Both the position numbers and the translations under genes were made by a program. This document shows positions 29,272-53,875 of a stretch of 64,000 nt of DNA, one piece after another (positions within the stretch are counted from its first letter, which is position 1; each line of letters opens with the position of its first letter). The DNA is from Candidatus Pacebacteria bacterium GW2011_GWA1_46_10 (GTDB taxonomy: Bacteria > Patescibacteriota > Microgenomatia > UBA1400 > PJMF01), in the NCBI GenBank assembly GCA_001002135.1, contig LCLP01000001.1:8417-72416 (forward strand), given 5' to 3'. The notes below the pieces were generated by a model. It was not told the origin of the DNA. It worked only from the letters and a program-made list of their open reading frames with translations, and did no database searches.

Positions 29272-29993
29272 ATTTTCATTTTTCCGTCGACGATTTTGCC
29301 ATCAATCAGACTAATATGTTGCTTAGCAATGTCTGCGACATCGTGTTCATGGGTGACCATGATGATGGTGCGGCCCTCTTTACTCAGTTGTTGCAGGATT
29401 TTCCTTACTTCTTCGCCGCTTTTGGAATCCAAGTTGCCGGTTGGTTCATCGGCAAAGATGATGGAGGGGTTATTGACCAGCGCTCGGGCAATGGCCACTC
29501 GTTGTTGTTGACCGCCCGATAACTGTGATGGCGTGTTATGTAATCGATCACCCAAACCGATCTTTTCCAGCATCACTTTAGCGCGCTCCAGCCTGGTTTT
29601 CTCATCGATGCCGGCGTAAACCAAGGGGAGCGCCACGTTTTCTAAGGCCGAAGTTTTGGCCAGCAAATTGTAGTTTTGGAAGACAAAACCAACTTCGCTG
29701 TTACGCAAATGCGCTCGCTCGACTTCGTTGTATTTAGTGGTATTTTTGCCATTAATCAAAATATGGCCGCTGGACGGAGTGGCCAGAATGCTGGCAACTT
29801 GCAAAAACGTTGACTTACCCGATCCGGAGGGACCCATCACCGAGAGGAAGTCACCTTCACGGACCCTGAGCGACACGCCGTCTAAGGCTTTGATCGTTTG
29901 AGTGCCGACCTCATACACCTTGGAGACGTTTTGTAACTCTAAGATGATTTTCTTGGTTGAACTTGATTTTTTTGACCGTTTGCTTTGAGGCAT
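29268..29993 (-). CDS. ABC transporter ATP-binding protein (MacB/LolD type)
   Basis: Walker A 'GPSGSGKST', signature 'LSGGQQQRVAIARAL', Walker B 'IIFADEPTGNLD', H-loop 'VTHEH'. Confidence 0.9.
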   Translation of the reverse strand: MPQSKRSKKSSSTKKIILELQNVSKVYEVGTQTIKALDGVSLRVREGDFLSVMGPSGSGKSTFLQVASILATPSSGHILINGKNTTKYNEVERAHLRNSEVGFVFQNYNLLAKTSALENVALPLVYAGIDEKTRLERAKVMLEKIGLGDRLHNTPSQLSGGQQQRVAIARALVNNPSIIFADEPTGNLDSKSGEEVRKILQQLSKEGRTIIMVTHEHDVADIAKQHISLIDGKIVDGKMKI

Positions 29994-30002
29994 TACATTC
30001 GA

Positions 30003-31046
30003 TTATTCGGGCAACAGTATTTCGTCTGACTCTGATAAGCCGCTCAAGACTTCTACTTTTTCGTCCGTTTCCAGGCCAAGCGTGATTTCTCGCTCCTCGT
30101 ACTCTTGCGGGCCGGTTCGCACGTCAACATACGTTTTACTATCACGCTCACGAGTGGCAATCAGCGGAATGGTCAGTGCGTCGGCTTTTTCAGTCAGCTT
30201 GATATCGACATCGCCGTTCATGCCGAGTCGATATTTTTCCAAGCCACTGAGCGTCTCAATCGGCAGTTCGACGATAAACACAGTCCCGCTGGTATCAGCG
30301 GTACTCAGGTAAGAGATATAGTTAACCGAAGAGTTGATACTTTCGCCTGGATAAGCGTCCAGTTCAATGACGGCGGTTTGACTAAGTTGAACATCGGCAA
30401 TGTCTGCCTCGTCGACCAGCGCCCGGAAAACAAGCGTATCGGGATTAACGATCAGAAATTTATCGGTGGCGGCAAGAGTTACCCCACTGACGTTAGTGGG
30501 TGACTGAACTAAAGTACCATTGATCGGTGAAGACATGACGGTATTGGCTACCGCGATGGCCGCAATCTCTACGTCGAGCACGGTGTTACTGAGATCGAGT
30601 TGGTTTTTATCTACCGTCCGCTCCTCGGCTTTATCAATAGTGCGGTCCTCAATGTCGTCCAGTTGTTGATCCCAATCGAGTCGTTCCTTGGAGTAAAGGT
30701 TGAGGTTTTTTTCTTGAGTTTTGGCCAGGCTCGCGGCATCGATTTGGGCGATGGTTTGCCATTTTTTGACTTGGTCGCCTTCTTTGGCGCCTAAGTACAC
30801 GACTTTACCGCCGGCCAGAAAGTGCATCGAGGCTTTTTCTTTGGCGTCTACCGTGCCAGAAACTGCTAGGGTTTTAATCAGTGTTTCGCGAGTGGGTGAA
30901 ATGAAAGTGAGTTGTGCTTGTCGTTGAGAGCGTGCGTAGACGAATCGGCCGACGAGTAACAAGACTATCAGCACGCCAATCACCCACCACCGCCTAAGTT
31001 TCCAGATTTTTTTGAGCTTTTTGACCAAAAGTTTGACGAATTTCAT
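30003..31046 (-). CDS. efflux periplasmic adaptor (HlyD/MacA-like membrane fusion protein)
   Basis: N-terminal TM anchor, coiled-coil-rich middle, beta-barrel-like C-terminus. Operon position upstream of the MacB-like pair. Confidence 0.7.
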   Translation of the reverse strand: MKFVKLLVKKLKKIWKLRRWWVIGVLIVLLLVGRFVYARSQRQAQLTFISPTRETLIKTLAVSGTVDAKEKASMHFLAGGKVVYLGAKEGDQVKKWQTIAQIDAASLAKTQEKNLNLYSKERLDWDQQLDDIEDRTIDKAEERTVDKNQLDLSNTVLDVEIAAIAVANTVMSSPINGTLVQSPTNVSGVTLAATDKFLIVNPDTLVFRALVDEADIADVQLSQTAVIELDAYPGESINSSVNYISYLSTADTSGTVFIVELPIETLSGLEKYRLGMNGDVDIKLTEKADALTIPLIATRERDSKTYVDVRTGPQEYEEREITLGLETDEKVEVLSGLSESDEILLPE

Positions 31047-31088: not shown

Positions 31089-31106
31089 TTTTTATCAGAA
31101 ACAGGG

Positions 31107-31180
31107 TGCGTGCGCTAGGACTCGAACCTAGAACCACCAAGGTATAAGCTTGGTGCTCTAACCAATTGAGCTACACACGC
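31107..31180 (-). tRNA. tRNA-Ile with anticodon UAU (reads AUA); CCA not encoded
   Basis: 74-nt cloverleaf with acceptor GCGUGUG/CGCACGC, D-arm GCUC-AAUUGGUUA-GAGC, anticodon stem CCAAG/CUUGG with loop CUUAUAC, T-arm CUAGG-UUCGAGU-CCUAG, discriminator A. Confidence 0.8.
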
Positions 31181-31265
31181 AGGTCAATTAAAAGTGAATA
31201 GTTAAAAGTTTATAGAGTCTATTAACTATTAACTATGGACTTATTGCTTGCCTTGGAATTATAGC

Positions 31266-32021
31266 CTACAGGAGCAAGAGGAGGAGGGCGCCGACGCCAA
31301 GCGTGGCGATGCCAACCTGTAAATACCGCAACCAATCTGCTGGACCGGCAACTGGGAGTTCCTCTGGGATTTCCGGTTGAGTAGTGGGTTGAACAAGAGT
31401 TGGTCGGGCGCCACTAGTAGCTGCTGTTTCTTCGCCGGTTTGTTGGTTGATGGTGACATTAACACTGGCAGTGCTGGTGGAGTTAGCGCTGACGTTGACG
31501 TTCACGTCATTATCTTCTGGAGTGGGAGTAGGAGTTGGTTCTTCTGTTGGTGTTGGTGTAGGAGTGGGCTCTTGACAACAACTAGCGATGGACGGATTGG
31601 CGACACAAGCGGCCTCAAACTCTGGTTGAGCGCAATAAGTGTTGCCGTTATCAGCGGTGATACAAGTTAAACCATCCAGACAGTCGGCGTCAGTGTCGCA
31701 GGGACCGTAGCCACAAGCGGCCTGGGTTGTCACCTCGGAAACAGTAAAAGTCAGAGTGCAATTGGACGTTTGTTGAATGGCGGCCTCCGGGCGCGATTCA
31801 GGCACGTTCGGCGCCACTGGTCCTTGGGTGAGAAATTGTTTTTGCGAGATCAGCACACCAATAAAACCAAGGAAGAAAAACCCAGCTAAAGCCAGCACGC
31901 CGCTGATCAATTTCCAAGGAGAGATTGAGTTATTGGCGGGAGTCTGAGCCTTAACCGTTTTTACTATGGTTGGCTCTTTTTTCCTTGGAGCGGCTGGTGG
32001 GTTTTGATAAGTGTTCTCCAT
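31266..32021 (-). CDS. cell-surface protein: TM, Cys-rich domain, Pro-Thr linker, LPXTG-like (LPVAG) C-terminal sorting signal; paralog A
   Basis: N-terminal TM anchor, about 10 Cys, '(E)PTPTPTPTEEPTPTPTPE' linker, C-terminal 'ELPVAGPADWLRYLQVGIATLGVGALLLLLL'. Confidence 0.6.
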   Translation of the reverse strand: MENTYQNPPAAPRKKEPTIVKTVKAQTPANNSISPWKLISGVLALAGFFFLGFIGVLISQKQFLTQGPVAPNVPESRPEAAIQQTSNCTLTFTVSEVTTQAACGYGPCDTDADCLDGLTCITADNGNTYCAQPEFEAACVANPSIASCCQEPTPTPTPTEEPTPTPTPEDNDVNVNVSANSTSTASVNVTINQQTGEETAATSGARPTLVQPTTQPEIPEELPVAGPADWLRYLQVGIATLGVGALLLLLL

Positions 32022-32030
32022 TAGTTTTGA

Positions 32031-32897
32031 TTAGTTTTGGGTACAAACAGTTGGTGTATAACTTTCCCAGTTACACTCAGCGGTGGTGCCGCCATCTGGA
32101 CAGACGGCGCACTGGACAGCAAAGTCACCAGTTGAAGGAATGGTGTAACTGATATTGCTACTGCTAGTGGTGTATTGGAGTGGTTCGTTGTGGTACTCGC
32201 TACCGCACGGCCCCCAAATTCTGAATTGATAGTGATAACCGTCAGGCAGCGCGATGTTAGCCGAACAAGTGAAGCCGACTGTGTCACCTGGAGCTAGGCC
32301 GGCATCGTCGTTACCAGAGAGAACGATGGGATTGCCATCATTGGGGTCATACATCCCGATGTCGTAACACATCGGTCCACCTGGCAGCGTGGGGGTAGGG
32401 GTGTGGGTAGGAGTGGGGGTCGGAGTATGAGAAGGAGTTGGCGTTGGTATACGGGTGGGAGTGGGTGTTCGAGTCGGTCTTGGAGTGGGGGTAGGAGTGG
32501 GTGTTGGGAGAGTGTCCCCTGGGAAACAACCATCGCTACTACCGCAAACGTAGCCCGGCACGCAACAGGTCATCCCGAAGCCTTGCCAGTTAGTGCAGTA
32601 ACTTCTTCCTTGAGCCTCGCAAGAGGCTTTAATAGTGTCGTCACACTCAGTGCCGGTACAGGCGTCTCCACCAAGACAGTGACAGTTTTCTGGCTGACCT
32701 CCACAAGCGTTTGGGTCACCGATCGTACATTCGTAGTTTTCATCATAAGCTGGACCAGCGGCTTGTTGGCGCAAGTCTTGACTGATTCGGGAAAGGTAAA
32801 GCCCTACTGCTGCGCCAATCAGGAGCATCAGTAATAAAGCTCCCCCGAGGAGGAGTGAGCGGGTTCGTTGGGCAGTTGAGGGAGTAGGGTTGGCCAC
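32031..32897 (-). CDS. cell-surface protein: TM, Cys-rich domain, long Pro-Thr linker, Cys-containing beta-rich C-terminal domain; paralog B (no LPXTG)
   Basis: Shares the TM plus 'SQDLRQQAAGP' juxtamembrane segment and Cys-rich module with paralogs A and C. 'TPTPTPTPRPTRTPTPTRIPTPTPSHTPTPTPTHTPTPT' linker. Confidence 0.6.
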   Translation of the reverse strand: MANPTPSTAQRTRSLLLGGALLLMLLIGAAVGLYLSRISQDLRQQAAGPAYDENYECTIGDPNACGGQPENCHCLGGDACTGTECDDTIKASCEAQGRSYCTNWQGFGMTCCVPGYVCGSSDGCFPGDTLPTPTPTPTPRPTRTPTPTRIPTPTPSHTPTPTPTHTPTPTLPGGPMCYDIGMYDPNDGNPIVLSGNDDAGLAPGDTVGFTCSANIALPDGYHYQFRIWGPCGSEYHNEPLQYTTSSSNISYTIPSTGDFAVQCAVCPDGGTTAECNWESYTPTVCTQN

Positions 32898-33044
32898 TCG
32901 GTTGCTTTCAGCTATTGGTGCTGAGGAATAGCATACAGAGGTTTTCTGGCTAGGGTCAAGCAGACTGATCTCAGTAGCAGTTTTGGTTTGGAAAAGAAAT
33001 GAGCGCGGTTTTGTCGCCCAGCTTGTCGGTTAGTGACTGTCAAA

Positions 33045-33863
33045 CTAAAGGAAGAGCAGCAGTAGCGCGCCGGCGCCAAGGACACCCAGGCCGATCTGCA
33101 GGTATTTCAGCCAATCTTCCGGACCGGTTTGGGGCAGTTCACTAGGGAGAGTGGGTTGACCGCCGGTAGTGGTACTAGTGCCGCCGGTACTAGTTCCTTC
33201 ATTGAGGGTGACGTTGGCCTCAGCATTGCTGGACGAGTCAGCAGTAGCAATTATGTTAGTGTCGTCGCCACCACCACCGACACCATCACCTGGTGTGGGG
33301 GTTGGTTCCACTGTAGGTGTTGGTTCTTCTGTGGGTGTCGGAGTAGGAACATTACTCGGCGTTGGGGTTGGAGTGAGGGTTGGTGTATGAGTGGGGGTAG
33401 GAGTTGGTGCGGCGTCCTCAGTTGTTCGGCAAACACAGTCGCCATCCGACTGTGCCCGGCAAGTGCCGTAGGGCGCGTTGTTACCACAGCGATCGCCGGG
33501 ATCTTTGCCCTGACATTGAGCGGCAGAGCCTGGGCCGCAACCGCCGCTGGGTATGGGAGTGGGAGTGGTGATCGGGTGTTCATACACTGATGCCTGTTGA
33601 CGTAAATCCTGGTTGAGTTTAATGAGATATAAACCGACGCCGCTGCCAATGACCAGCAGCAGTAAAAGCGCCCCGGCTAAGATATATTTACCAGACAGTT
33701 TGCCTTTCTTTTGCGGTGGCGGGGTGGAATCAGCTGTTTGACCTGCTGGAGTCGGTTGATCATTGACCGCCGGAGTTTGTCCGGGATCAGTTGGCAGATC
33801 ATCCGGCAGATTTGGTGGCAACGGTGAAACTGGTGAAGGTGAAGAGCCAACGACGTTGATCAT
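33045..33863 (-). CDS. cell-surface protein: TM, Cys-rich domain, Pro-Thr linker, LPQTG sorting signal; paralog C
   Basis: Long Pro-rich N-terminal tail, TM, 'NQDLRQQAS', Cys-rich module, 'PTPTPTHTPTLTPTPTPSNVPTPTPTEEPTPTVEPTPTPG' linker, C-terminal 'LPQTGPEDWLKYLQIGLGVLGAGALLLLFL'. Confidence 0.65.
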   Translation of the reverse strand: MINVVGSSPSPVSPLPPNLPDDLPTDPGQTPAVNDQPTPAGQTADSTPPPQKKGKLSGKYILAGALLLLLVIGSGVGLYLIKLNQDLRQQASVYEHPITTPTPIPSGGCGPGSAAQCQGKDPGDRCGNNAPYGTCRAQSDGDCVCRTTEDAAPTPTPTHTPTLTPTPTPSNVPTPTPTEEPTPTVEPTPTPGDGVGGGGDDTNIIATADSSSNAEANVTLNEGTSTGGTSTTTGGQPTLPSELPQTGPEDWLKYLQIGLGVLGAGALLLLFL

Positions 33864-34099: not shown

Positions 34100-34774
34100 A
34101 TGCAACTAAACTTATTAAAATTTAAAGTTTTGTCAAATTTTGCTTTTCTGCCTTGGGTAAAACGGAGCTTTATTTTTTTACGTCTCGCCAGTTGTCCGTT
34201 TATGGAGTTGATAACTTACCTACCAAAGAAAGGCAAGTTACTTGATGTTGGCACTGGGTTCGGATTATTGCCTTTATTACTTAAACAGCACAACTCCCAA
34301 TTGCAAATTATTGGTATTGATCCAGATGCCGAGCGCATTAAGCTGGCTCGGCAAGCCAATCAAAATCTTAGTAATTTTCAGTTTCAAGTAGGCACAGTAC
34401 TAGATCTAGACTTGCGACAAACTTTTACAGTCGCAACCTTGGTGGATGTTTTGTACTTACTTCCCCAAAGCGAAAAAATAAAAACCATTCAAGCAGTGTA
34501 TCGATTACTTGAACCAAATAGTTTGTTAGTCATCAAAATCAATGACAAATCTTTTAGTCTCAGCTATTTTTTCACTTGGTTGCAAGAAAAAATGACGGTA
34601 CAGATTTTTAAGGAAACCACTACCAATTTCCCTGGTTTATATTTTGAAAATGCGGCGGAAGTGAGCGAACTGTTGGAAAACAATGGTTTCCAAGTACAAA
34701 AAAGGGTGAAACTTAAAACTCCGTTCCCCTTTTTCCACCCGCATTGGTTAGTGGTTGCACAAAAGAAAAACTAA
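34100..34774 (+). CDS. class I SAM-dependent methyltransferase
   Basis: Motif I 'LLDVGTGFGLLPLLL', motif post-I 'IIGIDPD', motif II-like 'FTVATLVDVLYLL'. Confidence 0.75.
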   Translation: MQLNLLKFKVLSNFAFLPWVKRSFIFLRLASCPFMELITYLPKKGKLLDVGTGFGLLPLLLKQHNSQLQIIGIDPDAERIKLARQANQNLSNFQFQVGTVLDLDLRQTFTVATLVDVLYLLPQSEKIKTIQAVYRLLEPNSLLVIKINDKSFSLSYFFTWLQEKMTVQIFKETTTNFPGLYFENAAEVSELLENNGFQVQKRVKLKTPFPFFHPHWLVVAQKKN

Positions 34775-34785
34775 TAACATGAGTT

Positions 34786-36339
34786 TTACCGAACATTCAT
34801 TACCAAAATCGGCGTTTGGAAAGAACCGATGGTTTTTTCCAAAATGAAGGTCTCGCCGTAATAGTTTCGATTAATTTTTTCCTCAAAACTAGTAAAGCAG
34901 TCATTGATGGAAAAATTGCTGTTTACCTGATGACAAATTACGTACAGAGTAACCAAGTTAGTTTTCGATCGGCGGGTAGCTTTGCTGGTTTCAGGATCAA
35001 TATCCACCAGATATTCTCCAGTCAATTTTTCCAAATTGTACCAGTAATAAGAGGTTTCCCAACCATAAGGGTCGTAGTGACTGATGGCTAACAGGTCAAT
35101 ATCAGTAAGAGGCAATTGTTTTTGATGGGCGTCATTTAAGATTCCTGTGGCTGCTTGACGAGCAGCGGTGATAGTGGATGCGCCCGTCAGTCTCATACTA
35201 GTCAAATTAGTTTTAAGTAAAAATGCTGATAAAAAAATAATTGCTATGACAAAAACTGTGTTTTTTAATTGACCCAATAATGCACTCAACCAGAGTAATA
35301 AAAAGGGAGTGACAACCAATAAATAAGCGCGCGAAAATATGGGAAGTGTTTCCTGAATTAAAATAGCTATCAAAACGGCAGGCAGGAAGCTGAAAAGAAA
35401 TAGTAAAATTATTCCCTTGCTATGAGCTTTTAGGGTTTTGTTGAAATTTGCCAATACTGCGGCACTGATAAAAAAAGCGAAGAAAATGATGTCGTTTTTA
35501 GTTTCTGAAGATGGGAAATAAAGAAACACTTGCTTGAGGCTCAGAGTTAATCGTTCACCTAATTTCGAAGTAGCTATGGCTGTCTGTGACTGCTGATAAT
35601 ACTGGCCGATTATTTGAAATCTGGCCCAGTCATATTTCACTTCGACTAATAAAATGGGCAAATAAATTGCCACTGCCCCTAAAGTGAAGATAATTATTGC
35701 TCTGATTGGTTTAGCGAGATTTTTTAATTCACGAACAAAAAGAATAGCCTTGAGGGGTATGAGTAGGTACATGGGTGGATAAAACTGGGTAGCTAGTAAA
35801 CTGATGAGAACGGCACTGATAAAAAAATTTTCTCTTTTACCTTGCTTGAAAAGGGCGAATAAATAGAGAGCAATTGTGTCAAAAAAAATGGCAATAACAG
35901 GTTGTGAGGCCCAAGTGGAAGTGTAGAGCATGGTGGGCAAAAAAAGGGCTAAGACGAGGACAGCCATGCCAGTTTTTTGATTGAAGAAGATGCAAGCTAT
36001 CCGATAAAGAAAATAAGCTTGTAATAAATTAATGACAGTAAAAATCAAAATATATCCTTCTGGAGTTTGTAGTCCAATGAGATAAATTAAAGTTAGAAAA
36101 TAGTATCCCAATGGCGAGTTATGTAAGAGGTATTTATCGTCAGTATCTAAAGCACTAATTTCTCCCAACTCTGGAAATTTACCATATTTAATCAGGCGTT
36201 CCGCCGTCAGTAGTTGCACTCCCTCATCTCCGGCAATTGTTTCGAAATGGCTCCAATTGATTAATCTAAAAACAGCGCCGATTAAAAAAAACAGCCCGAT
36301 AATTATTAAAGTTTTGTTTTTTAAAATAATTTTTACCAT
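34786..36339 (-). CDS. GT-C fold glycosyltransferase, PMT/ArnT-like (GT39/GT83 family, PMT_2-type)
   Basis: About 12 TM segments. A conserved acidic 'AGDEG' motif in the first extracytoplasmic loop (the DE motif of the PMT/ArnT family). 517 aa. Confidence 0.6.
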   Translation of the reverse strand: MVKIILKNKTLIIIGLFFLIGAVFRLINWSHFETIAGDEGVQLLTAERLIKYGKFPELGEISALDTDDKYLLHNSPLGYYFLTLIYLIGLQTPEGYILIFTVINLLQAYFLYRIACIFFNQKTGMAVLVLALFLPTMLYTSTWASQPVIAIFFDTIALYLFALFKQGKRENFFISAVLISLLATQFYPPMYLLIPLKAILFVRELKNLAKPIRAIIIFTLGAVAIYLPILLVEVKYDWARFQIIGQYYQQSQTAIATSKLGERLTLSLKQVFLYFPSSETKNDIIFFAFFISAAVLANFNKTLKAHSKGIILLFLFSFLPAVLIAILIQETLPIFSRAYLLVVTPFLLLWLSALLGQLKNTVFVIAIIFLSAFLLKTNLTSMRLTGASTITAARQAATGILNDAHQKQLPLTDIDLLAISHYDPYGWETSYYWYNLEKLTGEYLVDIDPETSKATRRSKTNLVTLYVICHQVNSNFSINDCFTSFEEKINRNYYGETFILEKTIGSFQTPILVMNVR

Positions 36340-36363
36340 TTAGAGGATTCTCGCTCACTAATT

Positions 36364-37473
36364 TTATTGCTGTTTGATTAAATTAAGCACACTCAAACAG
36401 TCTTCTAAATTACCAGCATAGCAGTCATAACGATATTGATATTGAACAATGCTAAGTAAAATAATGATGGCCCAAAAAACCATTGGTTTTTTTATAAATA
36501 CTTGCAGTAGGGCCAAAAAAAGCAAGTAAAAAACTGGCAAAATCGGCAGGATATGTCTGGGCAAGAGGTAACCAAGTTTAGTTATCATCAGTAGAGTTGG
36601 TAACGATACAGCACCCAAAACCAATGCTAGGGTGATCACTTCTTTAATGGTTTTGATAAGTTTCTTACTAAACATTAACATTACAACACTAGAACCAGAA
36701 ATGAGATACCGTCCCTGACGGACAGTGATATAAGTAATGGCGTCCCACAGACTTTGCCATGGTTGCTCGTCATAAAATCTTTCTGGTGAGTAAACCCACC
36801 AACCGGCAATCGATGCGTGTATGTATAACCAGACTACAGTCATAACAGGTAGCGGTGAAATATAACGTATTAACCAAGAGAGTTTGTTTGTGATGCCTTT
36901 TTCCAAAAATAAATAAACTCCGGCTGCTAGGGTAATAAAAAGTGCGTTGTCAACTCTGAATAAAATAGCCAAGATAGCAATTAAAGTGAAGCTAAAATAT
37001 TTTTTCTTGATTAAAAAAATGACACTTAAAAAACGCAGAGCAGCCCCAACGATCTCAAAATAAACGAGATGAGTTTGAGCTATAAAAAGCGGATTGGTGA
37101 GAAATAAAACTACCAAAGCCTGGCCAATTTTTTTACTGGCTATACTTTTGCCCAAAAAATACATCACCACCAGGAAAAACAGCGATAAAAATAAACTTAA
37201 TAAATGAATAAAAAAGAGATGATTAGTGGTTAGTTTGATAATAAAAGCGATTATCAACGGCAATAAAAAAGTATGAGGATAATCGCTGCCACCAAAGTAT
37301 GAAAAAAGATTGCCAGTTTGAGCAATAGCATAACCTGCAGGGACCAGAAACCAGGCAGTGTCCCAGTAGAAAGGGAGAGAAAAGCTTTTTTTAGTTGACA
37401 AGAGTAAAACAATTGTTACCCCCAACCAAAAAAGCATATCCTGCCAACTAACTTTTTTAGTTGTTTTAGTCAT
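36364..37473 (-). CDS. polytopic membrane protein, probable second GT-C-like glycosyltransferase (start uncertain; ORF open to 37506)
   Basis: 10 or more TM segments, 'WDTAWF' in the first loop. Operon partner of the PMT/ArnT-like gene and the GT2-YdjC fusion. Confidence 0.4.
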   Translation of the reverse strand: MTKTTKKVSWQDMLFWLGVTIVLLLSTKKSFSLPFYWDTAWFLVPAGYAIAQTGNLFSYFGGSDYPHTFLLPLIIAFIIKLTTNHLFFIHLLSLFLSLFFLVVMYFLGKSIASKKIGQALVVLFLTNPLFIAQTHLVYFEIVGAALRFLSVIFLIKKKYFSFTLIAILAILFRVDNALFITLAAGVYLFLEKGITNKLSWLIRYISPLPVMTVVWLYIHASIAGWWVYSPERFYDEQPWQSLWDAITYITVRQGRYLISGSSVVMLMFSKKLIKTIKEVITLALVLGAVSLPTLLMITKLGYLLPRHILPILPVFYLLFLALLQVFIKKPMVFWAIIILLSIVQYQYRYDCYAGNLEDCLSVLNLIKQQ

Positions 37474-38845
37474 ATAAACTTCCCGGATGAGTAATTTGAA
37501 CATCAAAGAATAATTTAGATTTTTGTTTGGGATGTATAAGCAACAGTTGTTTCAAGTTCAGTAGTGTTTGTAGCAACAAAAAAGGTAAATACTTTTGTGG
37601 CCGCAAACGAAGGTAGTTGGTAGTAGAACTTGTACCCCTAATTTGGACTTGATGCTGAGCCGCCATTTCTTCCACTATTTGCTTGATTGGAAAAAAGGTG
37701 TGAAGGTGTTGCTCTGAATCTAGGTAATTGACAGCAAAGCCCAATTTTTTTAAATATTTGAACTGGTTAGTAAATTCTAGCTTTACTTCGGTCAGCTTTA
37801 CTTGTCCAAAAAAAAGCTTAGTTAATAAAACTGGCAAAGAAAAAAAGTTCCCTTGCTGGTCTATTAGGGAACTGACCAATTTTTGTATAGTGATAGGCTT
37901 TCCTCTGGTTAAATTGAGATGAAGACCGATCTTGACTGATCGTTGGTAAGCAAGCAATTTTCGACTATCTATTGTGGAAACAAGATTTACTAAAACGGAC
38001 ACACCAGTCAGATTTTTAGCGGCCGCTTGATCAATTACAGCCTCATTAACAACTGACGATAAACCATAATCATCAGCAATAACTGGTAGACGGCTTAATT
38101 GATTGTTTGAATTATTAGATAAATAACCGCCGAGTTTAAAGGTGATTATTCTCCATAAATCAATGAGTGTGAGTCGAACTCTTCGCCAAGAAGTATAACG
38201 AGTTGGTCGCAATTCCCTCACAACAACAGGAACCTCCTGGAGACTTTGTTTTTGTTGGCAAAGCTTTAACAGTAATTCTGTATCCAGCAGCTCATGTTTG
38301 ACGGAGCACGCTCTTAAAGTTTTTATCAGAGCTGGAGTACTACGAAATGCTTTTAAACCATGAGTGTCTGTACCGGGGTATGAAAATAACATCTTGAGCG
38401 ATTGATGAAAAATTTTGGTTTGAATTTGGCGAAGTAATCCACGGTGGTCTTGGCTTTCACGTAATGTTTTTGAGCCTACCACGATTTCGTATTTATCGAG
38501 CAATTTTTTTGCCTGGGAAATGAAATTCGAATTGAAAAAATCAATATTTAAGACATAGATTTTTTGGCCTAAAGCGCTCAAAATCCCGTGTTTAAGAGCT
38601 TGGCCATAAGAAGCCTGACTAATGCGCAAATTACGTAAACCAGGATATTTTTTAGCGAGCCTTTGCATAGTTGCCCAGGTTTGATCAGTGCTGCCGTTTT
38701 CGATTAGTAACACTTCAAATTGAGTAAAATAGTTTTTTTCTAATAACTGGTAAAAAAGCTTTAATTGAGGGGAGAGATAAGAAGCTTCATTATAAACAGG
38801 AAATATAAAGCTATGTCGAACTGAGGAATGGACATTGTTACTCAT
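37466..38845 (-). CDS. bifunctional fusion: N-terminal family 2 glycosyltransferase, C-terminal YdjC/ChbG-like carbohydrate deacetylase
   Basis: GT2 'SFIFPVYNEASYL...LLIENGSTDQT'. YdjC-type 'SRLPVIADDYGLSSVVNEAVIDQAAAKNLTGVSVLVNLVST' starting around residue 235. Confidence 0.7.
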   Translation of the reverse strand: MSNNVHSSVRHSFIFPVYNEASYLSPQLKLFYQLLEKNYFTQFEVLLIENGSTDQTWATMQRLAKKYPGLRNLRISQASYGQALKHGILSALGQKIYVLNIDFFNSNFISQAKKLLDKYEIVVGSKTLRESQDHRGLLRQIQTKIFHQSLKMLFSYPGTDTHGLKAFRSTPALIKTLRACSVKHELLDTELLLKLCQQKQSLQEVPVVVRELRPTRYTSWRRVRLTLIDLWRIITFKLGGYLSNNSNNQLSRLPVIADDYGLSSVVNEAVIDQAAAKNLTGVSVLVNLVSTIDSRKLLAYQRSVKIGLHLNLTRGKPITIQKLVSSLIDQQGNFFSLPVLLTKLFFGQVKLTEVKLEFTNQFKYLKKLGFAVNYLDSEQHLHTFFPIKQIVEEMAAQHQVQIRGTSSTTNYLRLRPQKYLPFLLLQTLLNLKQLLLIHPKQKSKLFFDVQITHPGSLYD

Positions 38846-38906: not shown

Positions 38907-41444
38907 ATGAGTTTTTTTTTACCAACTAAGCATTTAATTAATCAGACGAGGCGTCAAAAGCAAACTCAACTACATCAGTTGGAAAACAAGCTTAAAAAAA
39001 GCCGCTCATTAAATGAGTATCTGCGCGCTCTTGATAGGTGGGGCCAATTAAATACATTAGTTTTTGCCAAAATTTATAAAGAAATTTTTTCTAAAAAAGA
39101 GAAACTCCATAGCTCACTTTGTGTTTCAGGAAGTTATGCGAGCGGCAGCTTAACATGCAGGTCAGATCTTGACGTTGTGTTATTTTACGATTCGCGTTTT
39201 TTGCCAAAGCGTGATGTAGAGAGAAAAATACAAAGTTTTTTATCAGTAGTTCAGCCGCTGGTGGGCAAAGCTGATTATATTATTTTTGACACAAATCAAG
39301 CTTCTAGTTCAGATTTTTTTGACACTGTAAACCCATTTTTACTAAACTTTTTCTTGATACACTCTTTTATTTCGGGCAATCAACAGCTTTATAGAGAAAC
39401 AGCTAACAACCTAGCTAAAAATGAAAAAATTACCCAGCAACTGGTGGAGTTTATTTATGTTCACAAACAGCTTCCCAAGTTCGGTTTTACTGAAAATACC
39501 CAGTTTCACGTTAAAATTTCTCCGGGAGGGCTTTTAACGCTTACTTTAGCTTTTCATTTTTTGCGGTCATCAAAGTTTTTTTCTCAAGATTTAAGCTTGA
39601 TTGAAGTTCTCAGAAATCTCAATCAACTTAAGGAATTTTCTAGAAAAGAGTGCTTAGCAGTGATTGATTCTTTTAAATTATTGCGTTTTGTAAAAAGTGA
39701 GTTAGAAATTATCAGCAATTCTGATCAGGTCCCGGTTAAAGAAGAGCTCCTATTTAAAATAAGCCAAAGAAATAATTGGATTCCCGACGGAAAGATTTTA
39801 TACACCGCAATCAACAGAGCCAGAAGAACTATTCTTAATTTTGATGAAAAAATTCAATCAATGATTTTGGATAAGCTCGGAATTGATAAAAAAAAGCTTC
39901 TCCAATTTTATAAAAATCAAAAAAACTGGGAAAAGCTCATAAGCGATACTGAAAAACCTTTTTACAACACCATCTTTGCTTGGACAACCAATAATCCTGT
40001 AGTGAGCGAGGGGCTTTTTTACCAAACAGAAAAAAAATCGACCCCTTTTTTGCTGGGGTTGATGCAAAACCCGATCACCCCTGGCAAGATACTTAATAAG
40101 GTGGAAATTCTTAGTAGAGATACTCAATACCTTAAAGTAAGAAATCGCTTTTTGCTTTATCACCCGTTTCTGATGAAAAAAACACTATTGCGAATGGTGA
40201 CAAAAGATTGGAGTGCATTTCTGTCATTTGTCCACACATTGCGGAATAAGATTTTTCAACAAGTTTTGTGGCTTCTTTCAAAATTAAAATTCTTCGGTTT
40301 AAGAAAGGTTTTTTATGCGGCAAAGGACTTCACTCTTTTTCTTAAAAAGATACATTTATCAAATGACATAGTGTTTTTGTCAAAAAGCAAGAAGGAGGAA
40401 ATACTATCGAGTTTTGTAAAAGAGCTATCTCGTCTAGAGATGGTTGAAGCGGTTTACAACATAGGAAGGAAGAAATATGTTTCGGGAATATCGGATTTAG
40501 ATTTAGTGGTGATAGTCAAAAAGAGTGGTAGTTATTCTTCGCTCAAAAAGGTTTTTTACCAATATCGAGCTAGTTTTAAGTCACAGTCCTATTTGTTTGA
40601 GCATTTTCCTTTTGTTGTCACTCGCAGCCTCTTTGTCGCACTCACTCGTTTTGGCATAATTCCACATCTCAACCACGATCTAACCGAACGTTTGCAGTGT
40701 TTATACGCCAAAAAAGATTTTAGTCAGCCTGAAATAACTGTGAGCGGACAACAGTACAGGCTCTCTTTGTTGGAGCATTATTTTCTTTCTATTTGGTCAA
40801 ACAATCTTACCTTGAGGTATCAGTCAGCAGTTTCTCTCAGGCTCATGATTAAAAGGGTAGAAAAGCTCTTTTTGAATTTTTGTCAATTTTGGCAGTTTCA
40901 AAATCCACCCCCGATCCTTTCGGAAAATGGTTTTTATCAGGAAATGGAGTTAAAAATTTCCAAGACCATTAAAAGTATTCTTAAAACAATATCTAACAAA
41001 GAGATACTTTCGTTTTCCCAGCATGCTGCTCTCTTTCAAATATGGCAGGAGATTGACCAGGCATTTGAAAAGGAAATCAATAACTACTTGCAAGAAACTT
41101 TTCCTGGTAATAGTTTATTATTACCACTTGTGTCTGGTCGCAATCAGTTTGCGGACACCCTTTTTCTGCATATACCAAATCGACAGTTATTTTTTTGGAG
41201 ACTTTTGAAATACTGGTTAGGGAAACAAAAGATTTTGTTAATGAATCATCGATATTTGCTTTATTTCAATACTGTTTTTCAAGATAACCAACCTTTAGGC
41301 AGCAAAAGGTTGAGTTCACTCATTAAAGAAAGGAGAAAGACTAGAATGGCTTGGTACTCTTTTTTAGAAGAAGGGGATTTAATTACATGGAGTAATAGAC
41401 CTTATTTTTATGAGATTTATCAAAAGTATAGGGAAGTTTCTTAA
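38907..41444 (+). CDS. large protein with two GlnE/GlnD-type nucleotidyltransferase motifs (double-NTase, GlnE-like architecture); function unknown
   Basis: Motif 1 'LCVSGSYASGSLTCRSDLDVVLFYD' (around residue 70) and motif 2 'VYNIGRKKYVSGISDLDLVVIV' (around residue 520) both fit the G-x-G...S-D-[IL]-D-[LV] Pol-beta NTase signature as seen in GlnE/GlnD. The two lie about 450 aa apart, as in GlnE halves. Confidence 0.45.
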   Translation: MSFFLPTKHLINQTRRQKQTQLHQLENKLKKSRSLNEYLRALDRWGQLNTLVFAKIYKEIFSKKEKLHSSLCVSGSYASGSLTCRSDLDVVLFYDSRFLPKRDVERKIQSFLSVVQPLVGKADYIIFDTNQASSSDFFDTVNPFLLNFFLIHSFISGNQQLYRETANNLAKNEKITQQLVEFIYVHKQLPKFGFTENTQFHVKISPGGLLTLTLAFHFLRSSKFFSQDLSLIEVLRNLNQLKEFSRKECLAVIDSFKLLRFVKSELEIISNSDQVPVKEELLFKISQRNNWIPDGKILYTAINRARRTILNFDEKIQSMILDKLGIDKKKLLQFYKNQKNWEKLISDTEKPFYNTIFAWTTNNPVVSEGLFYQTEKKSTPFLLGLMQNPITPGKILNKVEILSRDTQYLKVRNRFLLYHPFLMKKTLLRMVTKDWSAFLSFVHTLRNKIFQQVLWLLSKLKFFGLRKVFYAAKDFTLFLKKIHLSNDIVFLSKSKKEEILSSFVKELSRLEMVEAVYNIGRKKYVSGISDLDLVVIVKKSGSYSSLKKVFYQYRASFKSQSYLFEHFPFVVTRSLFVALTRFGIIPHLNHDLTERLQCLYAKKDFSQPEITVSGQQYRLSLLEHYFLSIWSNNLTLRYQSAVSLRLMIKRVEKLFLNFCQFWQFQNPPPILSENGFYQEMELKISKTIKSILKTISNKEILSFSQHAALFQIWQEIDQAFEKEINNYLQETFPGNSLLLPLVSGRNQFADTLFLHIPNRQLFFWRLLKYWLGKQKILLMNHRYLLYFNTVFQDNQPLGSKRLSSLIKERRKTRMAWYSFLEEGDLITWSNRPYFYEIYQKYREVS

Positions 41445-41452: not shown

Positions 41453-42220
41453 TCAAGCTTTTTCCGAATCTTTTTTGTAGAGCTCTATTACTTCTATTCC
41501 ACCGTCTTCAACGACCTTTCCTTGCTCTAGCCAAATAATTCTTGTGCAGTTATTTTTAAGATAATCTAGCCAATGGCTGACACTAACAATAGTTTTTCCT
41601 TGTTTAAAAAAACTGTTAATTTTTTTTAAAGATTTTTCTCTAAACTCTTGATCGCCAACAGCGATCGCTTCATCTAGCAGTAAAATATCTGGATTAGAGT
41701 GTACGGCGATAGAAAATCCTAACCGAAGAGACATACCAGAAGAGTAGGTATAGAGCGGCGAATCGATAAATTTTTTTAGACCACTAAACTGAACAATTTG
41801 TGTGAAATTTTGTTCTATTTCTTCTTTTGCCATACCAATTATCAAGCCGTTCAAAAAAATATTCTCTTCACCGGTGAGTTCTGGGTGAAAACCAGCTTCT
41901 AGTTCAATCAAAGAAACTACTTTGCCTTTAACCACTACTTTGCCTGAATCAGGAGTAGCAATTCCAGCGGCGATTTTCAACAAAGTAGTTTTACCGGAGC
42001 CGTTGGGACCAATAATGCCAACTTTCTCCCCCTGGGAAATGGTGAGAGAGATACCACGTAACGCCTGAAATCTTTCTCTAGATTCCAAGCCAAATAGTGT
42101 CCCTACTAGGGTAGGTTTTTGGTGTTTTAAGGTATAACTTTTGGCTACGTTTTGGAACTGGATAGCTGCTTGGCGGTTGGTAGATTGGGAGACACTCTTT
42201 TTTTTCATCACTACATCCAA
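41453..42220 (-). CDS. ABC transporter ATP-binding protein, TagH/Wzt-like (teichoic acid / polysaccharide exporter)
   Basis: Walker A 'GIIGPNGSGKTTLLKI', signature 'YSSGMSLRLGFSIAVH', Walker B 'LLLDEAIAVGDQEF'. Pattern typical of ABC-2 polysaccharide exporters. Confidence 0.85.
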   Translation of the reverse strand: MDVVMKKKSVSQSTNRQAAIQFQNVAKSYTLKHQKPTLVGTLFGLESRERFQALRGISLTISQGEKVGIIGPNGSGKTTLLKIAAGIATPDSGKVVVKGKVVSLIELEAGFHPELTGEENIFLNGLIIGMAKEEIEQNFTQIVQFSGLKKFIDSPLYTYSSGMSLRLGFSIAVHSNPDILLLDEAIAVGDQEFREKSLKKINSFFKQGKTIVSVSHWLDYLKNNCTRIIWLEQGKVVEDGGIEVIELYKKDSEKA

Positions 42221-42966
42221 TCATCAAAGTACTGTTCTTCCTTTTTAAAAACCAACAATCCCAACACCACTACCACTAAGGTTAAAGAAAGGGGAATAAG
42301 TAATGATTGACCAAAGGAAAAAGTTTCTGGTACGCCAAAGGCAGCTCTAAACAACTGAATAATAAGTGTCATGGGGTTTAGTACCAATAATTGTTGTAGT
42401 TGATGTGGCAAGATTTCTGGTGAGTAGATGATTGGGGTAGTGTAAAACCACAATGGGAGTAGGGCTTTGGTAAAAAAGTCAACGTCTCTAAACTTGACAT
42501 TTAAACTAGAGAAGAGCAGAGAAATGCCGGCAGTAAAAAAGAATAGCCAACTCACTGCCGCGGCCAGTAAGACAGCATTAACTGAGAAACCTGTAAATGG
42601 TAGCACCAGCAACAAACCAATAGAGAGATGGAGAAGGTTGGACAAAATGAGTGAGATCACTAGTGACTCTCTAGGGAATGCGGCTTTTTTGATTAAATAT
42701 CTTTCATACACGAATAATGGTGTAGCCTTGGAGAAGCTGGTAGTGAAAAAACTCCAAGGAAGTAGTCCTAAAAAGAGGTATAGGAAGTAGTTCTCAGTTC
42801 GAAAACCAGGGATAAACTGAAAAACCAAACCAATGACTAACATCTGTAAAAGAGGGTTGGCTACAATCCATAAAAATCCTAATGCGGCGTGTTTATATCT
42901 TCCCTTAATTTCCCGGCTAGTAAGAGCTAGAGTGAAGTCCAACCAATTTTGCCATTGCTTTACCAT
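42211..42966 (-). CDS. ABC-2 type transporter permease, TagG/Wzm-like
   Basis: Six-TM 251-aa permease immediately upstream of the TagH-like ATPase, with a 10-nt overlap. Confidence 0.8.
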   Translation of the reverse strand: MVKQWQNWLDFTLALTSREIKGRYKHAALGFLWIVANPLLQMLVIGLVFQFIPGFRTENYFLYLFLGLLPWSFFTTSFSKATPLFVYERYLIKKAAFPRESLVISLILSNLLHLSIGLLLVLPFTGFSVNAVLLAAAVSWLFFFTAGISLLFSSLNVKFRDVDFFTKALLPLWFYTTPIIYSPEILPHQLQQLLVLNPMTLIIQLFRAAFGVPETFSFGQSLLIPLSLTLVVVVLGLLVFKKEEQYFDDWM

Positions 42967-44129
42967 TTACGCGCTCCTTTTTGTTCGGAGTTTTGAATAA
43001 CCTTGGAGATATTTATTATCTTGTTTTTCCAACCGTTTGCTAGAGAAAGTTTACGCTGCCATTGCCCTACTTGAGAAGATTGCCGGCGAGTGAGTAGTGA
43101 TGTAATGGTTGTTTGCCAACTTTTGAGAGAAGGTTCTATTTTTACCAAGTTTGAAAACCTTTTGAGTTCAAGAATAGGGGCAGTAATAACTGGTTTTTTG
43201 CAATAGAAATACTCGAATAACTTCATTGGGTAGGAGTATTTAACGAGTAATTGCTTAGTATCGTAGGGAATAAGGCAAACATCAAACTGCTTAATGATGT
43301 TGGGAATTTCCCGTCGATCAGTACTTTGGCCGACTATCACGTTGGGCAGTTTTTTTAATGTATGAAGCTGTCGAGTGGTTTCAAGTTTATTTTCAAGAGA
43401 CATTTCTTGTACTGGTCCCCAGAGTACAAATTGCCACTGAGGGTTTCGTTTGATAAGTCGGTAGAGTAAAGCAAAGTCCAGCCGGTGGTCGATGGCGCCA
43501 ACATAACCAATGAGCGGTTTGTCTTTAGGAAATTTGGCTTTAGTTGTTTTGGGTTTAGCAAAGTCAGTTAACCGAAACCCTTGTGGTACTACTGCCGTTG
43601 GTCGGCGGGTGGTGGAGTGATGTTTGGCAAGCACTGCTGAATTAACAAAGAAAAAATCCACTTGTTTGATGAGTTTTTTTTCTTGAGTTTGCAACAGTTT
43701 TCGTAATTTTGGCTGGCGATGCCAGACGTAATCAACGCAGTCGTACAAAGCAATGAGTTTCGGGAAAGCCCACTTAACTTTGGGGTAAAACCAAAATCCT
43801 GGATCAAACAGCCATAAAATGGCCTGTTTTTTAGTAAGACCATCACGCAGTAGTAGGTACCAAATATTTAACAATTGGTTGAGTTTCTCAATCCCAGCTA
43901 ACCGCCGGACAGGAATCAGGTAGCGCGGTTGGTAAAACAAAATGTTCCGTCGGTGAGGAAATTGTTGTTTAGGTTTGGGTTTAAGCCAAAATCGTGCATC
44001 GGGTTGAATATAAGCGATAACCAAATTGTTTTTAGCCAGTTCCAGGCAGGTTTGCCACTGATAGTCAGCTGACCAATTCCAAGGCAATTGAAAAGGGATG
44101 ATTATTAAACTGTTTTTAAGCACGATCAA
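42960..44129 (-). CDS. glycosyltransferase, GT-B fold (group 1 / GT4-like)
   Basis: C-terminal 'PMKLFEYFYCKKPVIT' matches the GT4 'E-x7-E'-region nucleotide-sugar binding motif. 'LIGYVGAIDHRLDFALL'. Confidence 0.6.
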   Translation of the reverse strand: MIVLKNSLIIIPFQLPWNWSADYQWQTCLELAKNNLVIAYIQPDARFWLKPKPKQQFPHRRNILFYQPRYLIPVRRLAGIEKLNQLLNIWYLLLRDGLTKKQAILWLFDPGFWFYPKVKWAFPKLIALYDCVDYVWHRQPKLRKLLQTQEKKLIKQVDFFFVNSAVLAKHHSTTRRPTAVVPQGFRLTDFAKPKTTKAKFPKDKPLIGYVGAIDHRLDFALLYRLIKRNPQWQFVLWGPVQEMSLENKLETTRQLHTLKKLPNVIVGQSTDRREIPNIIKQFDVCLIPYDTKQLLVKYSYPMKLFEYFYCKKPVITAPILELKRFSNLVKIEPSLKSWQTTITSLLTRRQSSQVGQWQRKLSLANGWKNKIINISKVIQNSEQKGARKW

Positions 44130-49424: not shown

Positions 49425-49431
49425 ACTTTCT

Positions 49432-53247: not shown

Positions 53248-53875
53248 AGAAAGAAAGTAAAATTGCTTTTATTGAAAGCAGGATTTGTTTTAGATCTTCT
53301 CCGACACCGCCTTTGACCACTGTGGCTTCTTCTAATTCTTGCCAGCGTTTTAACGTATGATGTTTTTCTTTGGAAAATGCCCACTGTGAAAACACTCCTG
53401 GTTTCACTTGTTCCCGCCACGCCCGCCACGCTGGCGGTAAACCTTCGGCCTCAGGGACCGGCAGCGGCCGGGGTCCCACGAAACTCATCTCTCCTTTGAG
53501 AATATTCCATAACTGCGGTAACTCATCCAGGCCGGTGCGAGCCAACCACTTGCCGATCCCGACAAATCGAGGATCGTTGTGGATCTTAAACATCGGTGCC
53601 GGCGCTTCGTTGAGGTGCTGATATTTACGTTTGAGCATGGCGGCATTTTTAGTCATGGTGCGTAGCTTAAGTAGGGTAAAAACTTTACCGTTTTGACCAG
53701 TGCGGCGTTGTTTAAAAAGAATTGGTCGACCAGTAGTAATAAAAATAATCAGGTTGAGAATGAATAAAACGGGACTTAGTAAAACCAGCAGCAAGAGTGC
53801 AGTTGCAAAATCGAAAGTTCTTTTTTGGGGAGAAAAGTAATAGGGGTGTATCTGCATAAAGAATGAGTATAACAA
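53237..53875 (-). CDS. polyprenyl-phosphate sugar phosphotransferase (small PglC/WbaP-C-terminal-type bacterial sugar transferase)
   Basis: 'KRTFDFATALLLLVLLSPVLFIL...GRPILFKQRRTGQNGKVFTLLKLRTM...FKIHNDPRF...LDELPQLWNILKGEMSFVGPRP'. Confidence 0.85.
   Translation of the reverse strand: MLYSFFMQIHPYYFSPQKRTFDFATALLLLVLLSPVLFILNLIIFITTGRPILFKQRRTGQNGKVFTLLKLRTMTKNAAMLKRKYQHLNEAPAPMFKIHNDPRFVGIGKWLARTGLDELPQLWNILKGEMSFVGPRPLPVPEAEGLPPAWRAWREQVKPGVFSQWAFSKEKHHTLKRWQELEEATVVKGGVGEDLKQILLSIKAILLSFFNR

Follow-up and report, generated by a model that had tools for sequence, protein, structure and literature searches.

Results

Gene content and organization of the cassette

We analyzed a stretch of 64,000 nucleotides (here termed the window) from the genome of Candidatus Pacebacteria bacterium GW2011_GWA1_46_10, with the focus on a cassette of four genes whose products are predicted to make, tailor, and transfer a lipid-linked amino sugar. 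The cassette encodes a protein in which a glycosyltransferase family 2 (GT2) domain is fused to a shortened YdjC-type domain, two polytopic membrane proteins assigned to the GT-C glycosyltransferase fold by structure prediction, and a class I S-adenosylmethionine (SAM)-dependent methyltransferase, as follows (ORF, open reading frame; aa, amino acids).

37466-38845, minus strand: GT2-YdjC fusion, 459 aa (ORF listing)
38111-38845, minus strand: GT2 domain of the fusion, residues 1-245 (Pfam PF00535)
37466-38110, minus strand: shortened YdjC-type domain of the fusion, residues 246-459 (Pfam PF04794)
36364-37473, minus strand: predicted minimal GT-C protein of family A1, 369 aa (AlphaFold2 fold; ORF as listed, 36364-37506)
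34786-36339, minus strand: predicted GT-C protein of family A2, 517 aa (AlphaFold2 fold, weak PMT_2 match)
34100-34774, plus strand: class I SAM-dependent methyltransferase, 224 aa (Pfam Methyltransf_23/31/25/11)

The three minus-strand ORFs lie where a previous interpretation of this DNA, made from the letters without database searches (the sequence-only reading), had placed them, and they are tightly spaced. The stop codon of the fusion overlaps the start of the 369-aa gene by 8 nt (junction ATGACTAA) and a 24-nt gap separates the 369-aa gene from the 517-aa gene. The start of the 369-aa gene is most likely the ATG at 37473, a choice that agrees with the publicly annotated protein (P0096), which is matched at 100% identity and coverage. 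The fusion is likewise 100% identical to a protein of the GW2011_GWA1_46_10 assembly. The methyltransferase gene, which is convergent with the 517-aa gene and lies 11 bp from its end, had been left out of the proposed three-gene module; we delimit the cassette as four genes, with boundaries at 34100-38845, because these genes move as one block relative to a related Pacebacteria locus (L002; see below). A scan of the region for promoters and terminators gave no more than the shuffled expectation; one promoter-like site (10/12, at 38885-38857 on the minus strand) is located immediately upstream of the fusion gene.

The GT2-YdjC fusion protein

Both domains of the fusion, which the sequence-only reading had recognized, score above their Pfam gathering thresholds. 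Glycos_transf_2 (PF00535) matches residues 12-156 (E 8.1e-12, 45.8 bits, cut-off 23.3), i.e. the nucleotide-sugar-binding half, which places the domain in the GT2 family. The best matches of the GT2 domain to Protein Data Bank (PDB) sequences include the Pyrococcus dolichol-phosphate-mannose (Dol-P-Man) synthase (DPMS; 5mlz, E 1.2e-5); ArnC aligns with fusion residues 12-230 when the single sequence is used as the query, and a profile of the fusion family matches ArnC, GtrB, and DPMS over ~150 residues. Dol-P-Man synthase, ArnC, and GtrB are the only PDB matches that align beyond the first 100-120 residues of the GT2 domain. In an alignment of 39 fusion proteins, which are 29-56% identical to the window protein, P16, N19, E20, N50-G51-S52-x-D54, D102, D160, H162, R213, and R216 are invariant in the GT2 domain, which ends in a basic amphipathic stretch (~219-238, WRRVRLTLIDLWRIITFKL) that separates it from the YdjC domain.

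YdjC (PF04794) matches residues 253-411 (E 8.1e-32, 111.6 bits, cut-off 29.7), with the previously noted ADDYGLS..VN motif at residues 257-268. The PDB matches of this domain are 2i5i, the chitooligosaccharide deacetylase 7vi8, and 8jqe. Residues D258, D259, H309, H380, R403, and H453 are invariant in the 39 fusions, and H382, P454, and G455 are kept in at least 90% of them; D258, D259, H309, H380, and H382 align with catalytic or metal-binding positions of free-standing YdjC/HpnK proteins. As in ChbG and TTHB029, we take D258/D259, H309, and the HxH motif (H380) to be the metal-binding and catalytic set. The HpnK model is matched by the window domain (E 1e-16) and by all 39 fusions (best E 4e-29), at scores under the NCBIfam equivalog cut-offs for the window domain, both for HpnK (61.1 versus 232.6) and for ChbG (84.2 versus 227).

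Compared with free-standing YdjC/HpnK proteins, all of the fusions lack an internal stretch of ~30 aa and a tail of ~45-50 aa after the HPG motif, such that every fusion ends in HPGxxYD. The same short form is found as a stand-alone gene beside a separate GT2 gene (L019, L028, L081; P0196, P0207, P0221). The shortening is thus a family trait, rather than the mark of a pseudogene, and the domain is predicted to be a de-N-acetylase of the GT2 product.

The membrane proteins

With respect to sequence, the 369-aa protein has no match in Pfam, NCBIfam, or PDB sequences, and the 517-aa protein has a PMT_2 match (PF13231; 21.6 bits, E 2.8e-4) that is below the threshold of 26.1 bits; phmmer against the PDB gave nothing for either protein, and neither matches the NCBIfam ArnT model. 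A PMT_2 assignment, one of the checks proposed for the sequence-only reading, therefore fails for the window proteins themselves, but 5 of the 7 members of the 517-aa family (A2) match, if weakly (best E 1.1e-6). In the 369-aa family (A1), the match is found in 1 of 15 members, and also in a longer homolog of 484 aa in L001.

Since assignment at the sequence level was uninformative, fold prediction was needed. AlphaFold2 models were built on alignments of the 15 (A1) and 7 (A2) cluster representatives, giving a predicted local distance difference test score (pLDDT) of 87.6 and a predicted template modeling score (pTM) of 0.89 for the 369-aa protein, and a pLDDT of 75.3 and a pTM of 0.82 for the 517-aa protein. 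Fold-match scores for the membrane-protein models were as follows.

ALG12: 21.3 and 21.9
Pmt4: 20.6 and 21.2
ArnT: 18.4 and 19.1

Further fold matches comprise AglB, PIG-M, AftA/B, ALG3/9, STT3, and PglB, beyond which come non-specific helical repeats; in a Foldseek search with the 517-aa model, ArnT (5ezm) ranks first (E 9e-6). The two proteins combine a polytopic GT-C architecture with one or more acidic residues in the first extracytoplasmic loop. In family A1, D38 (PFYWD-T, directly after the first transmembrane segment) is invariant in all 15 members, as are D64-Y-P-H67, E140, R147, and R173. In the 517-aa protein, G-D38-E39-G directly follows the first transmembrane segment, in accord with the 'DE' loop of PMT/ArnT type that had been pointed out there, and is kept in the 6 A2 members that cover the N terminus (6/6); this protein also has a C-terminal, extracytoplasmic alpha/beta domain of ~110 aa. 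The A1 and A2 families are distant paralogues (hhalign probability 94%, E 1.3e-7). On the basis of the models, both membrane proteins are assigned to the GT-C fold of glycosyltransferases rather than to transporters, and glycosyltransferase activity would be expected of both. The two findings that would have spoken most directly against the sequence-only reading, a C-terminal domain that fails YdjC models and membrane proteins that match transporters, were thus not made.

Fusion partners of the GT2 clade

A search for homologs of the GT2 domain among 1.84 billion representatives revealed relatives of 34-45% identity that mostly stand alone (~235-260 aa), together with several types of fusion. 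Beside the YdjC fusions (~45 representatives), the GT2 clade includes fusions to a GtrA flippase domain (P0067, which matches the query domain at E 8e-35, and P0237), nine polytopic fusions of 639-842 aa with 6-11 predicted transmembrane segments, including one with a clear PMT_2 match (P0208, E 1.4e-12) and one with a weak match (P0238), and fusions to class I methyltransferases (P0045, P0153, P0156). The coupling to a flippase and to a GT-C consumer that characterizes the synthase subgroup is therefore seen here by way of clade fusions and locus neighbors. Because fusions with a GT-C or with a flippase for lipid-linked sugars recur in the clade, its members are most simply regarded as synthases of a lipid-phosphate-sugar donor, and it is this comparative evidence that we consider decisive for the predicted role of the GT2 as a lipid-linked donor synthase; sequence models alone cannot decide the polyprenol-phosphate type.

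Distribution, neighborhoods, and the methyltransferase

Either the fusion or a pair of separate genes is present in ~20 GTDB species, which are labeled as Pacebacteria, Woesebacteria, Chisholmbacteria, Roizmanbacteria, Microgenomates, and Parcubacteria. Some co-assembled bins, few in number, are labeled 'Pseudomonadales' or 'Gammaproteobacteria', probably in error, and the fusion appears to be confined to the Patescibacteria (candidate phyla radiation, CPR). The 24 related loci used for neighborhood counts are consistently polysaccharide or glycan clusters. Pairs of A1 and A2 genes occur in the window and in L001, L002 (the same contig as L006), L007, L010, and L011, and most of the other loci have a third GT-C-like family (13 proteins, two with weak PMT_2 matches), related to A1 at an hhalign probability of 88%. 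A GT-C-like gene from one of these three families lies within 8 kb of the fusion in ~18 of the 24 loci, and a large Wzy_C protein is encoded nearby in 14.

The 224-aa methyltransferase matches Methyltransf_23/31/25/11 at E values from 1e-14 to 1e-11, and NodS weakly (Pfam E 5.9e-4, NCBIfam E 1.1e-5). Its homologs adjoin the GT2-YdjC gene(s) in half of the related loci (12/24) and, in L010 and L011, sit between two GT-C genes. Specific homology to the methyltransferase domain of the GT2-methyltransferase fusions was considered and rejected (BLASTP E 0.2), the likeness being at the level of class. The PADLOC model 'mad2' (mads_2) also matches the protein (E 7.5e-13, core positions 289-426 of 492), which probably reflects generic class I methyltransferase likeness and not a defense role.

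The polysaccharide locus and other neighboring genes

Beyond the cassette lies a cell-wall polysaccharide locus, and between the two is a long ORF; a group of Cys-rich proteins is encoded on the other side of the cassette.

41453-53875, no strand assigned: wall-polysaccharide locus, 12 genes (Pfam and NCBIfam)
38907-41444, plus strand: 845-aa ORF, N-terminal NTP_transf_2 match (E 7e-7)
31266-33863, minus strand: three adjacent Cys-rich proteins, GC content 0.53-0.56

The polysaccharide locus encodes an ABC-2 exporter pair, a TuaH-like glycosyltransferase, two Wzy_C proteins, a DUF4330 protein, two glycosyltransferases of family 4 (GT4), a WecG/TagA protein, an epimerase, and an initiating enzyme of the Bac_transf family. 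Ten of the 12 genes have homologs in L002 (49-73% identity), arranged in the same order relative to each other. For the epimerase and Bac_transf, BLASTP found no homolog in L002, although that locus breaks off within a Bac_transf gene. In L002, the block consisting of the fusion, A1, A2, and methyltransferase genes is flanked by the GT4 and DUF4330 genes, whereas in the window these two genes abut and the block has a terminal position in the locus, on the far side of the ABC genes and the 845-aa ORF. The four genes accordingly look to have behaved as one transposable unit, and since the block has been relocated within the locus, the acceptor is most probably the product of that locus, i.e. the polymer of the adjacent TagA/GT4/ABC-2 genes.

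The cassette and the 845-aa ORF form a low-GC stretch (0.34-0.39, compared with 0.41-0.45 elsewhere in the polysaccharide locus and ~0.47 for the window). Recent horizontal transfer from the L002 lineage was considered and rejected as the cause; the identity of the cassette to L002 is 49-67% and that of the flanking polysaccharide genes is 49-73%, so that the cassette is no more L002-like than its flanks, and its low GC content is therefore no sign of such a transfer. The 845-aa ORF, which lies between the cassette and the ABC exporter genes, has the lowest GC content of this island (0.348) and, by eye, a second motif, G-x-SDLDL-like, around residue 530. This ORF was rejected as a member of the module, with homologs in none of 85 related loci and nothing informative from the PDB or PADLOC.

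The Cys-rich proteins have no Pfam match. Two of the three have long Pro/Thr-rich linkers, the protein encoded at 31266-32021 having only a short Pro/Thr-rich stretch, and in the outer two an LPQTGP or LPVAGP motif precedes a hydrophobic C-terminal tail, as in sortase-type sorting signals.

Other features of the window

At 6411-8605 (minus strand), five tandem paralogous genes encode T4SS_pilin proteins (PF18895) of 133-140 aa (E 1e-10 to 4e-7), beside which a sixth small ORF (8602-9072) has no match; weak hits from the flippase search described below, at 8198-9156, belong to this pilin array and were discarded. A 778-aa TrwB/VirD4-like coupling protein is encoded 14 kb from the array (22220-24556, plus strand). 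At 28054-31046 (minus strand) there are genes for an ABC efflux system of the MacB type, consisting of a MacB_PCD/FtsX permease, an ABC ATPase, and a HlyD-like adaptor, although the CPR cell is presumably monoderm. ARAGORN identified a tRNA-Ile with the anticodon TAT (UAU) at 31104-31181 (minus strand), and Rfam also recognizes it as a tRNA; in most bacteria, AUA is decoded by a tRNA whose CAU anticodon is modified with lysidine, and a genome-encoded UAU tRNA-Ile is uncommon. On the plus strand at 56416-59732 are, in order, tRNA-Ala(TGC), 23S rRNA (56649-59512), and 5S rRNA (59616-59732) genes; no 16S rRNA gene was found in the 64-kb window, and the rRNA genes thus appear to be unlinked or split.

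Discussion

Our results indicate that the cassette is most likely a three-component glycosylation system with on-lipid tailoring, which decorates a cell-wall polysaccharide with an amino sugar. The domain and fold identities, the conservation of catalytic residues, the coupling of the genes, and their co-inheritance are observed directly; the chemical steps, the identity of the sugar, and the acceptor are inferred from domain fusions and neighborhoods. We propose that the GT2 domain, as part of a soluble and membrane-peripheral fusion, moves an N-acetylhexosamine (HexNAc; N-acetylglucosamine, GlcNAc, or N-acetylgalactosamine, GalNAc) from a UDP-sugar to polyprenol phosphate at the cytoplasmic face, as a polyprenol-phosphate HexNAc synthase for which FlmF2, LgmA, PpgS, and GacI are precedents. 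The YdjC domain would then remove the N-acetyl group to give a polyprenol-phosphate hexosamine (HexN), in the manner of NaxD on undecaprenyl-P-GalNAc, a step that is suggested by the intact YdjC catalytic set, by the fusion of the two domains, and by the linkage to GT-C genes. The SAM methyltransferase might modify the lipid-linked sugar, and its action by N-methylation of the freed amine is speculation on our part. The donor would be flipped across the membrane, and the two GT-C enzymes, assigned by the fold of their models, would transfer the sugar to the acceptor on the outer face, either sequentially or as a pair. A pathway of this kind, from polyprenol-phosphate HexNAc synthesis through cytoplasmic de-N-acetylation and flipping to GT-C transfer, had been predicted in the sequence-only reading; it is best supported by the fusions and neighborhoods and is, in our view, the best explanation, which we hold with moderate confidence and with its chemistry still at the level of prediction.

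Several observations weigh against this explanation or parts of it. The fusion has no transmembrane segment (top 19-residue Kyte-Doolittle mean 1.44, with no segment reaching 1.5), and the C-terminal transmembrane helices of GtrB, ArnC, and DPMS were not found in the hydropathy scan; human DPM1 likewise lacks transmembrane helices, so that a synthase without them is still compatible with activity. The DXD motif reads N-x-D, N100-I-D102 being aligned to the D-A-D of DPMS. The polyprenol-phosphate type of the GT2, as assigned in the sequence-only reading, gains support from the clade fusions to GtrA and PMT_2 but not from models of named synthases, the NCBIfam cut-offs of which are missed by far (ArnC, 20.2 versus 529; PgfS, 33.3 versus 500). 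The best E values among the 39 fusions are 3.8e-14 for ArnC and 2.6e-9 for PpgS, the latter model being matched by 3 members of the fusion family, all under its cut-off; and the GT2 scores about equally against models of processive or glycan-building GT2s (PgaC, EpsD). The YdjC profile is covered only at positions 2-157 of 266, the domain falling short of the complete ~250-290 aa, with about a third of canonical YdjC absent. The nearest polytopic neighbor is Wzy_C and not a GT-C in L005, L016, and L021. In L005, directly downstream of the fusion, there is also a gene for a 471-aa radical-SAM protein (7398-8813, plus strand) with a faint match to the B12-binding domain; standing in place of a GT-C or class I methyltransferase, it is reminiscent by analogy of hpnI/K/J or, alternatively, of a class B radical-SAM methylase that replaces the SAM methyltransferase. 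Finally, a GtrA/ArnEF-like flippase, which it had been suggested to look for nearby, was not found, i.e. phmmer with four GT2-GtrA fusions against all 305 ORFs of the window that are 60 aa or longer gave no GtrA homolog, SMR and MATE proteins not having been specifically searched.

Part of this evidence would fit a pathway resembling HpnI/HpnK or PIG-A/PIG-L, in which the HexNAc is put on a non-carrier acceptor at the cytoplasmic face, either a membrane glycolipid or the undecaprenyl diphosphate (Und-PP)-linked oligosaccharide of the neighboring pathway, and is de-N-acetylated there, with the GT-Cs acting later with another lipid donor, e.g. to extend the HexN lipid like glycosylphosphatidylinositol (GPI) mannosyltransferases. 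YdjC enzymes also act on non-carrier substrates and the YdjC domain here matches HpnK and ChbG; equal scores against glycan-building GT2s and the lack of transmembrane helices are as expected for such a GT2, the frequent Wzy_C neighbors (14/24 loci) handle Und-PP-linked glycans, the B12/radical-SAM gene of L005 is placed like hpnJ in hopanoid clusters, and the window contains a second GT2 (15785-16651). We nonetheless consider this pathway unlikely, as the clade fusions to GtrA and to a PMT_2-type GT-C are hard to explain without a flipped lipid-phosphate-sugar product, the first GT-C gene overlaps the stop codon of the fusion, and the HpnK and ChbG scores are far under their cut-offs. Membership of a hopanoid pathway proper was rejected on the HpnK score and because no other hopanoid gene was present among the scanned ORFs of the window. 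A still less probable variant of the proposed pathway is that the YdjC domain has no catalytic activity and acts as a scaffold or for sugar binding in an ordinary system of the GtrB/GacI type, which would add HexNAc and not HexN side chains. The two absent segments and the partial profile coverage are in its favor, but six residues of the YdjC domain (D258, D259, H309, H380, R403, and H453) would hardly stay invariant across fusions of such divergence, and the occurrence of the same short form as a stand-alone gene beside a GT2 points to a selected enzymatic function. Among the readings considered here, we give this one the lowest probability, and regard it as very improbable.

With respect to the acceptor, the sequence-only reading had allowed for an envelope polymer or a protein. 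It is conceivable that the GT-Cs O-glycosylate Ser/Thr residues in the Pro/Thr-rich linkers of the neighboring sortase-type proteins, as in the PgfS/PgfM1/PgfM2 system of Streptococcus mutans or the actinobacterial Ppm1/Pmt systems. The best structural matches include Pmt4 and Pmt1/2, the 517-aa protein has the DE loop motif, PgfS is among the better NCBIfam matches of the GT2 (E 3e-8; 37 of the 39 fusions), and the three Pro/Thr-rich proteins, two with LPQTGP/LPVAGP C termini, are encoded within 3 kb. Such proteins are, however, found in only 3 of the 24 related loci and never beside the cassette, their genes are outside the low-GC block (0.53-0.56 versus 0.36-0.37), the L002 cassette stands amid polysaccharide genes, and the structural likeness to ArnT, ALG, and Aft proteins is equally high. 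A polysaccharide acceptor is the likelier because the Pro/Thr-rich surface proteins are not conserved partners, and we judge protein glycosylation to be improbable, if less so than a dead YdjC domain.

Returning to the proposed lipid-linked pathway, a more specific version of it is that the cassette makes an N-methyl hexosamine donor by NodC/NodB/NodS-like logic on a carrier lipid, with no canonical flippase, and that a dedicated heteromeric pair of minimal GT-Cs places the sugar on the wall polysaccharide of an episymbiotic CPR bacterium. We put this forward tentatively, as a minority possibility; with similar reserve, the donor in that version could be permanently cationic, and the GT2 clade might be viewed as a modular hub that recruits a tailoring enzyme, a flippase, or a transferase by fusion.

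Known systems with the same logic differ from the cassette in instructive ways. By enzyme class and order, the three enzymes FlmF2, NaxD, and FlmK, which put galactosamine on lipid A in Francisella (NaxD is also found in Acinetobacter), correspond to those of the cassette. NaxD is a YdjC-superfamily deacetylase of undecaprenyl-P-GalNAc (PMC11279074), and FlmF2 is a GT2 and FlmK an ArnT-like GT-C, which transfers the cationic sugar outside the cytoplasm (in part PMC8149597). The Francisella enzymes are separate proteins, whereas here the GT2 and a shortened YdjC are in one polypeptide; Francisella has one GT-C, whereas the cassette has two plus a methyltransferase; and no lipid A pathway is in view in this Patescibacterium, where the context is an ABC-exported wall polysaccharide. 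In Bordetella, LgmA is an ArnC-like GT2, LgmC is NaxD/YdjC-like, and LgmB is an ArnT-like GT-C, a parts list identical to that of the cassette. These genes, which act in the addition of glucosamine (GlcN) to lipid A phosphates, are not fused, have lipid A as acceptor, and include no methyltransferase; the small membrane protein LgmD has no counterpart that was found here. In Bordetella, the presence of GlcN on lipid A depends on the lgmABC genes (PMC4993483).

By acceptor type, the closest analogue is the system of PpgS (Rv3631), Rv3632, and Rv3779 in Mycobacterium and Corynebacterium, in which a GT2-made polyprenyl-P-GalNAc is deacetylated and the galactosamine (GalN) is moved to arabinogalactan by a GT-C, the deacetylase being still unidentified (PMC9671496). 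In the cassette, the deacetylase is fused to the synthase, and a GtrA-like partner of the Rv3789/Rv3632 type was not found in the window. More generally, the cassette shares with GtrA/GtrB/Gtr*, GacI/J/K/L, CsbB/GtcA/YfhO, and ArnC/D/E/F/T the three-component scheme of a cytoplasmic GT2 synthase, flipping, and GT-C transfer after polymer export (PMC11127046). The Arn pathway, in addition, deprotects the lipid-linked sugar before transfer, with the ArnD deformylase, as we propose here. The deprotecting enzyme of the cassette is YdjC-type and not, as is ArnD, of carbohydrate esterase family 4 (CE4) type, its synthase lacks the transmembrane helices of the Arn/Gtr systems, and the curated ArnC and ArnT cut-offs are not reached. 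In HpnI/HpnK and NodC/NodB, a GT2 adds GlcNAc and a deacetylase then frees the amine, which in the Nod factor is N-methylated by the SAM methyltransferase NodS. These systems (HpnI/HpnK, with HpnJ, and NodC/NodB/NodS) have a hopanoid or a chitooligosaccharide as acceptor in place of a carrier lipid and involve no GT-C; NodB is a CE4 and not a YdjC enzyme, and the likeness of the cassette methyltransferase to NodS is at the generic class I level. The parallels to Arn and HpnI/HpnK that had been drawn for the cassette are hence valid, but more distant than those to the Francisella, Bordetella, and mycobacterial systems.

Since the logic is already known from the unfused GT2, YdjC, and GT-C systems of Francisella and Bordetella, the cassette is less novel than the sequence-only reading implied. 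What is new is the fusion itself, together with the shortened YdjC domain, the linked methyltransferase, two GT-C families without reliable Pfam coverage, the movement of the four genes as a low-GC cassette inside a conserved wall-polysaccharide locus of the ABC-exporter type, and the restriction to the CPR; no description of a GT2-YdjC fusion turned up in literature searches, none of which was aimed at the fusion as such.

The Patescibacteria are ultrasmall, mostly uncultured, and host-attached bacteria, the surface glycans of which are essentially unknown and probably mediate attachment and phage recognition. The prediction is that an ABC-exported wall polymer in these cells carries a side chain of a free-amine (cationic), possibly methylated, hexosamine. 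By genomic association, the fusion supports de-N-acetylation at the cytoplasmic face before flipping, a point that is open for the mycobacterial GalN pathway (PMC9671496). The network of GT2 fusions, with YdjC, methyltransferase, GtrA, and GT-C partners, may also serve as a guide to the annotation of 'hypothetical' membrane proteins in metagenomes.

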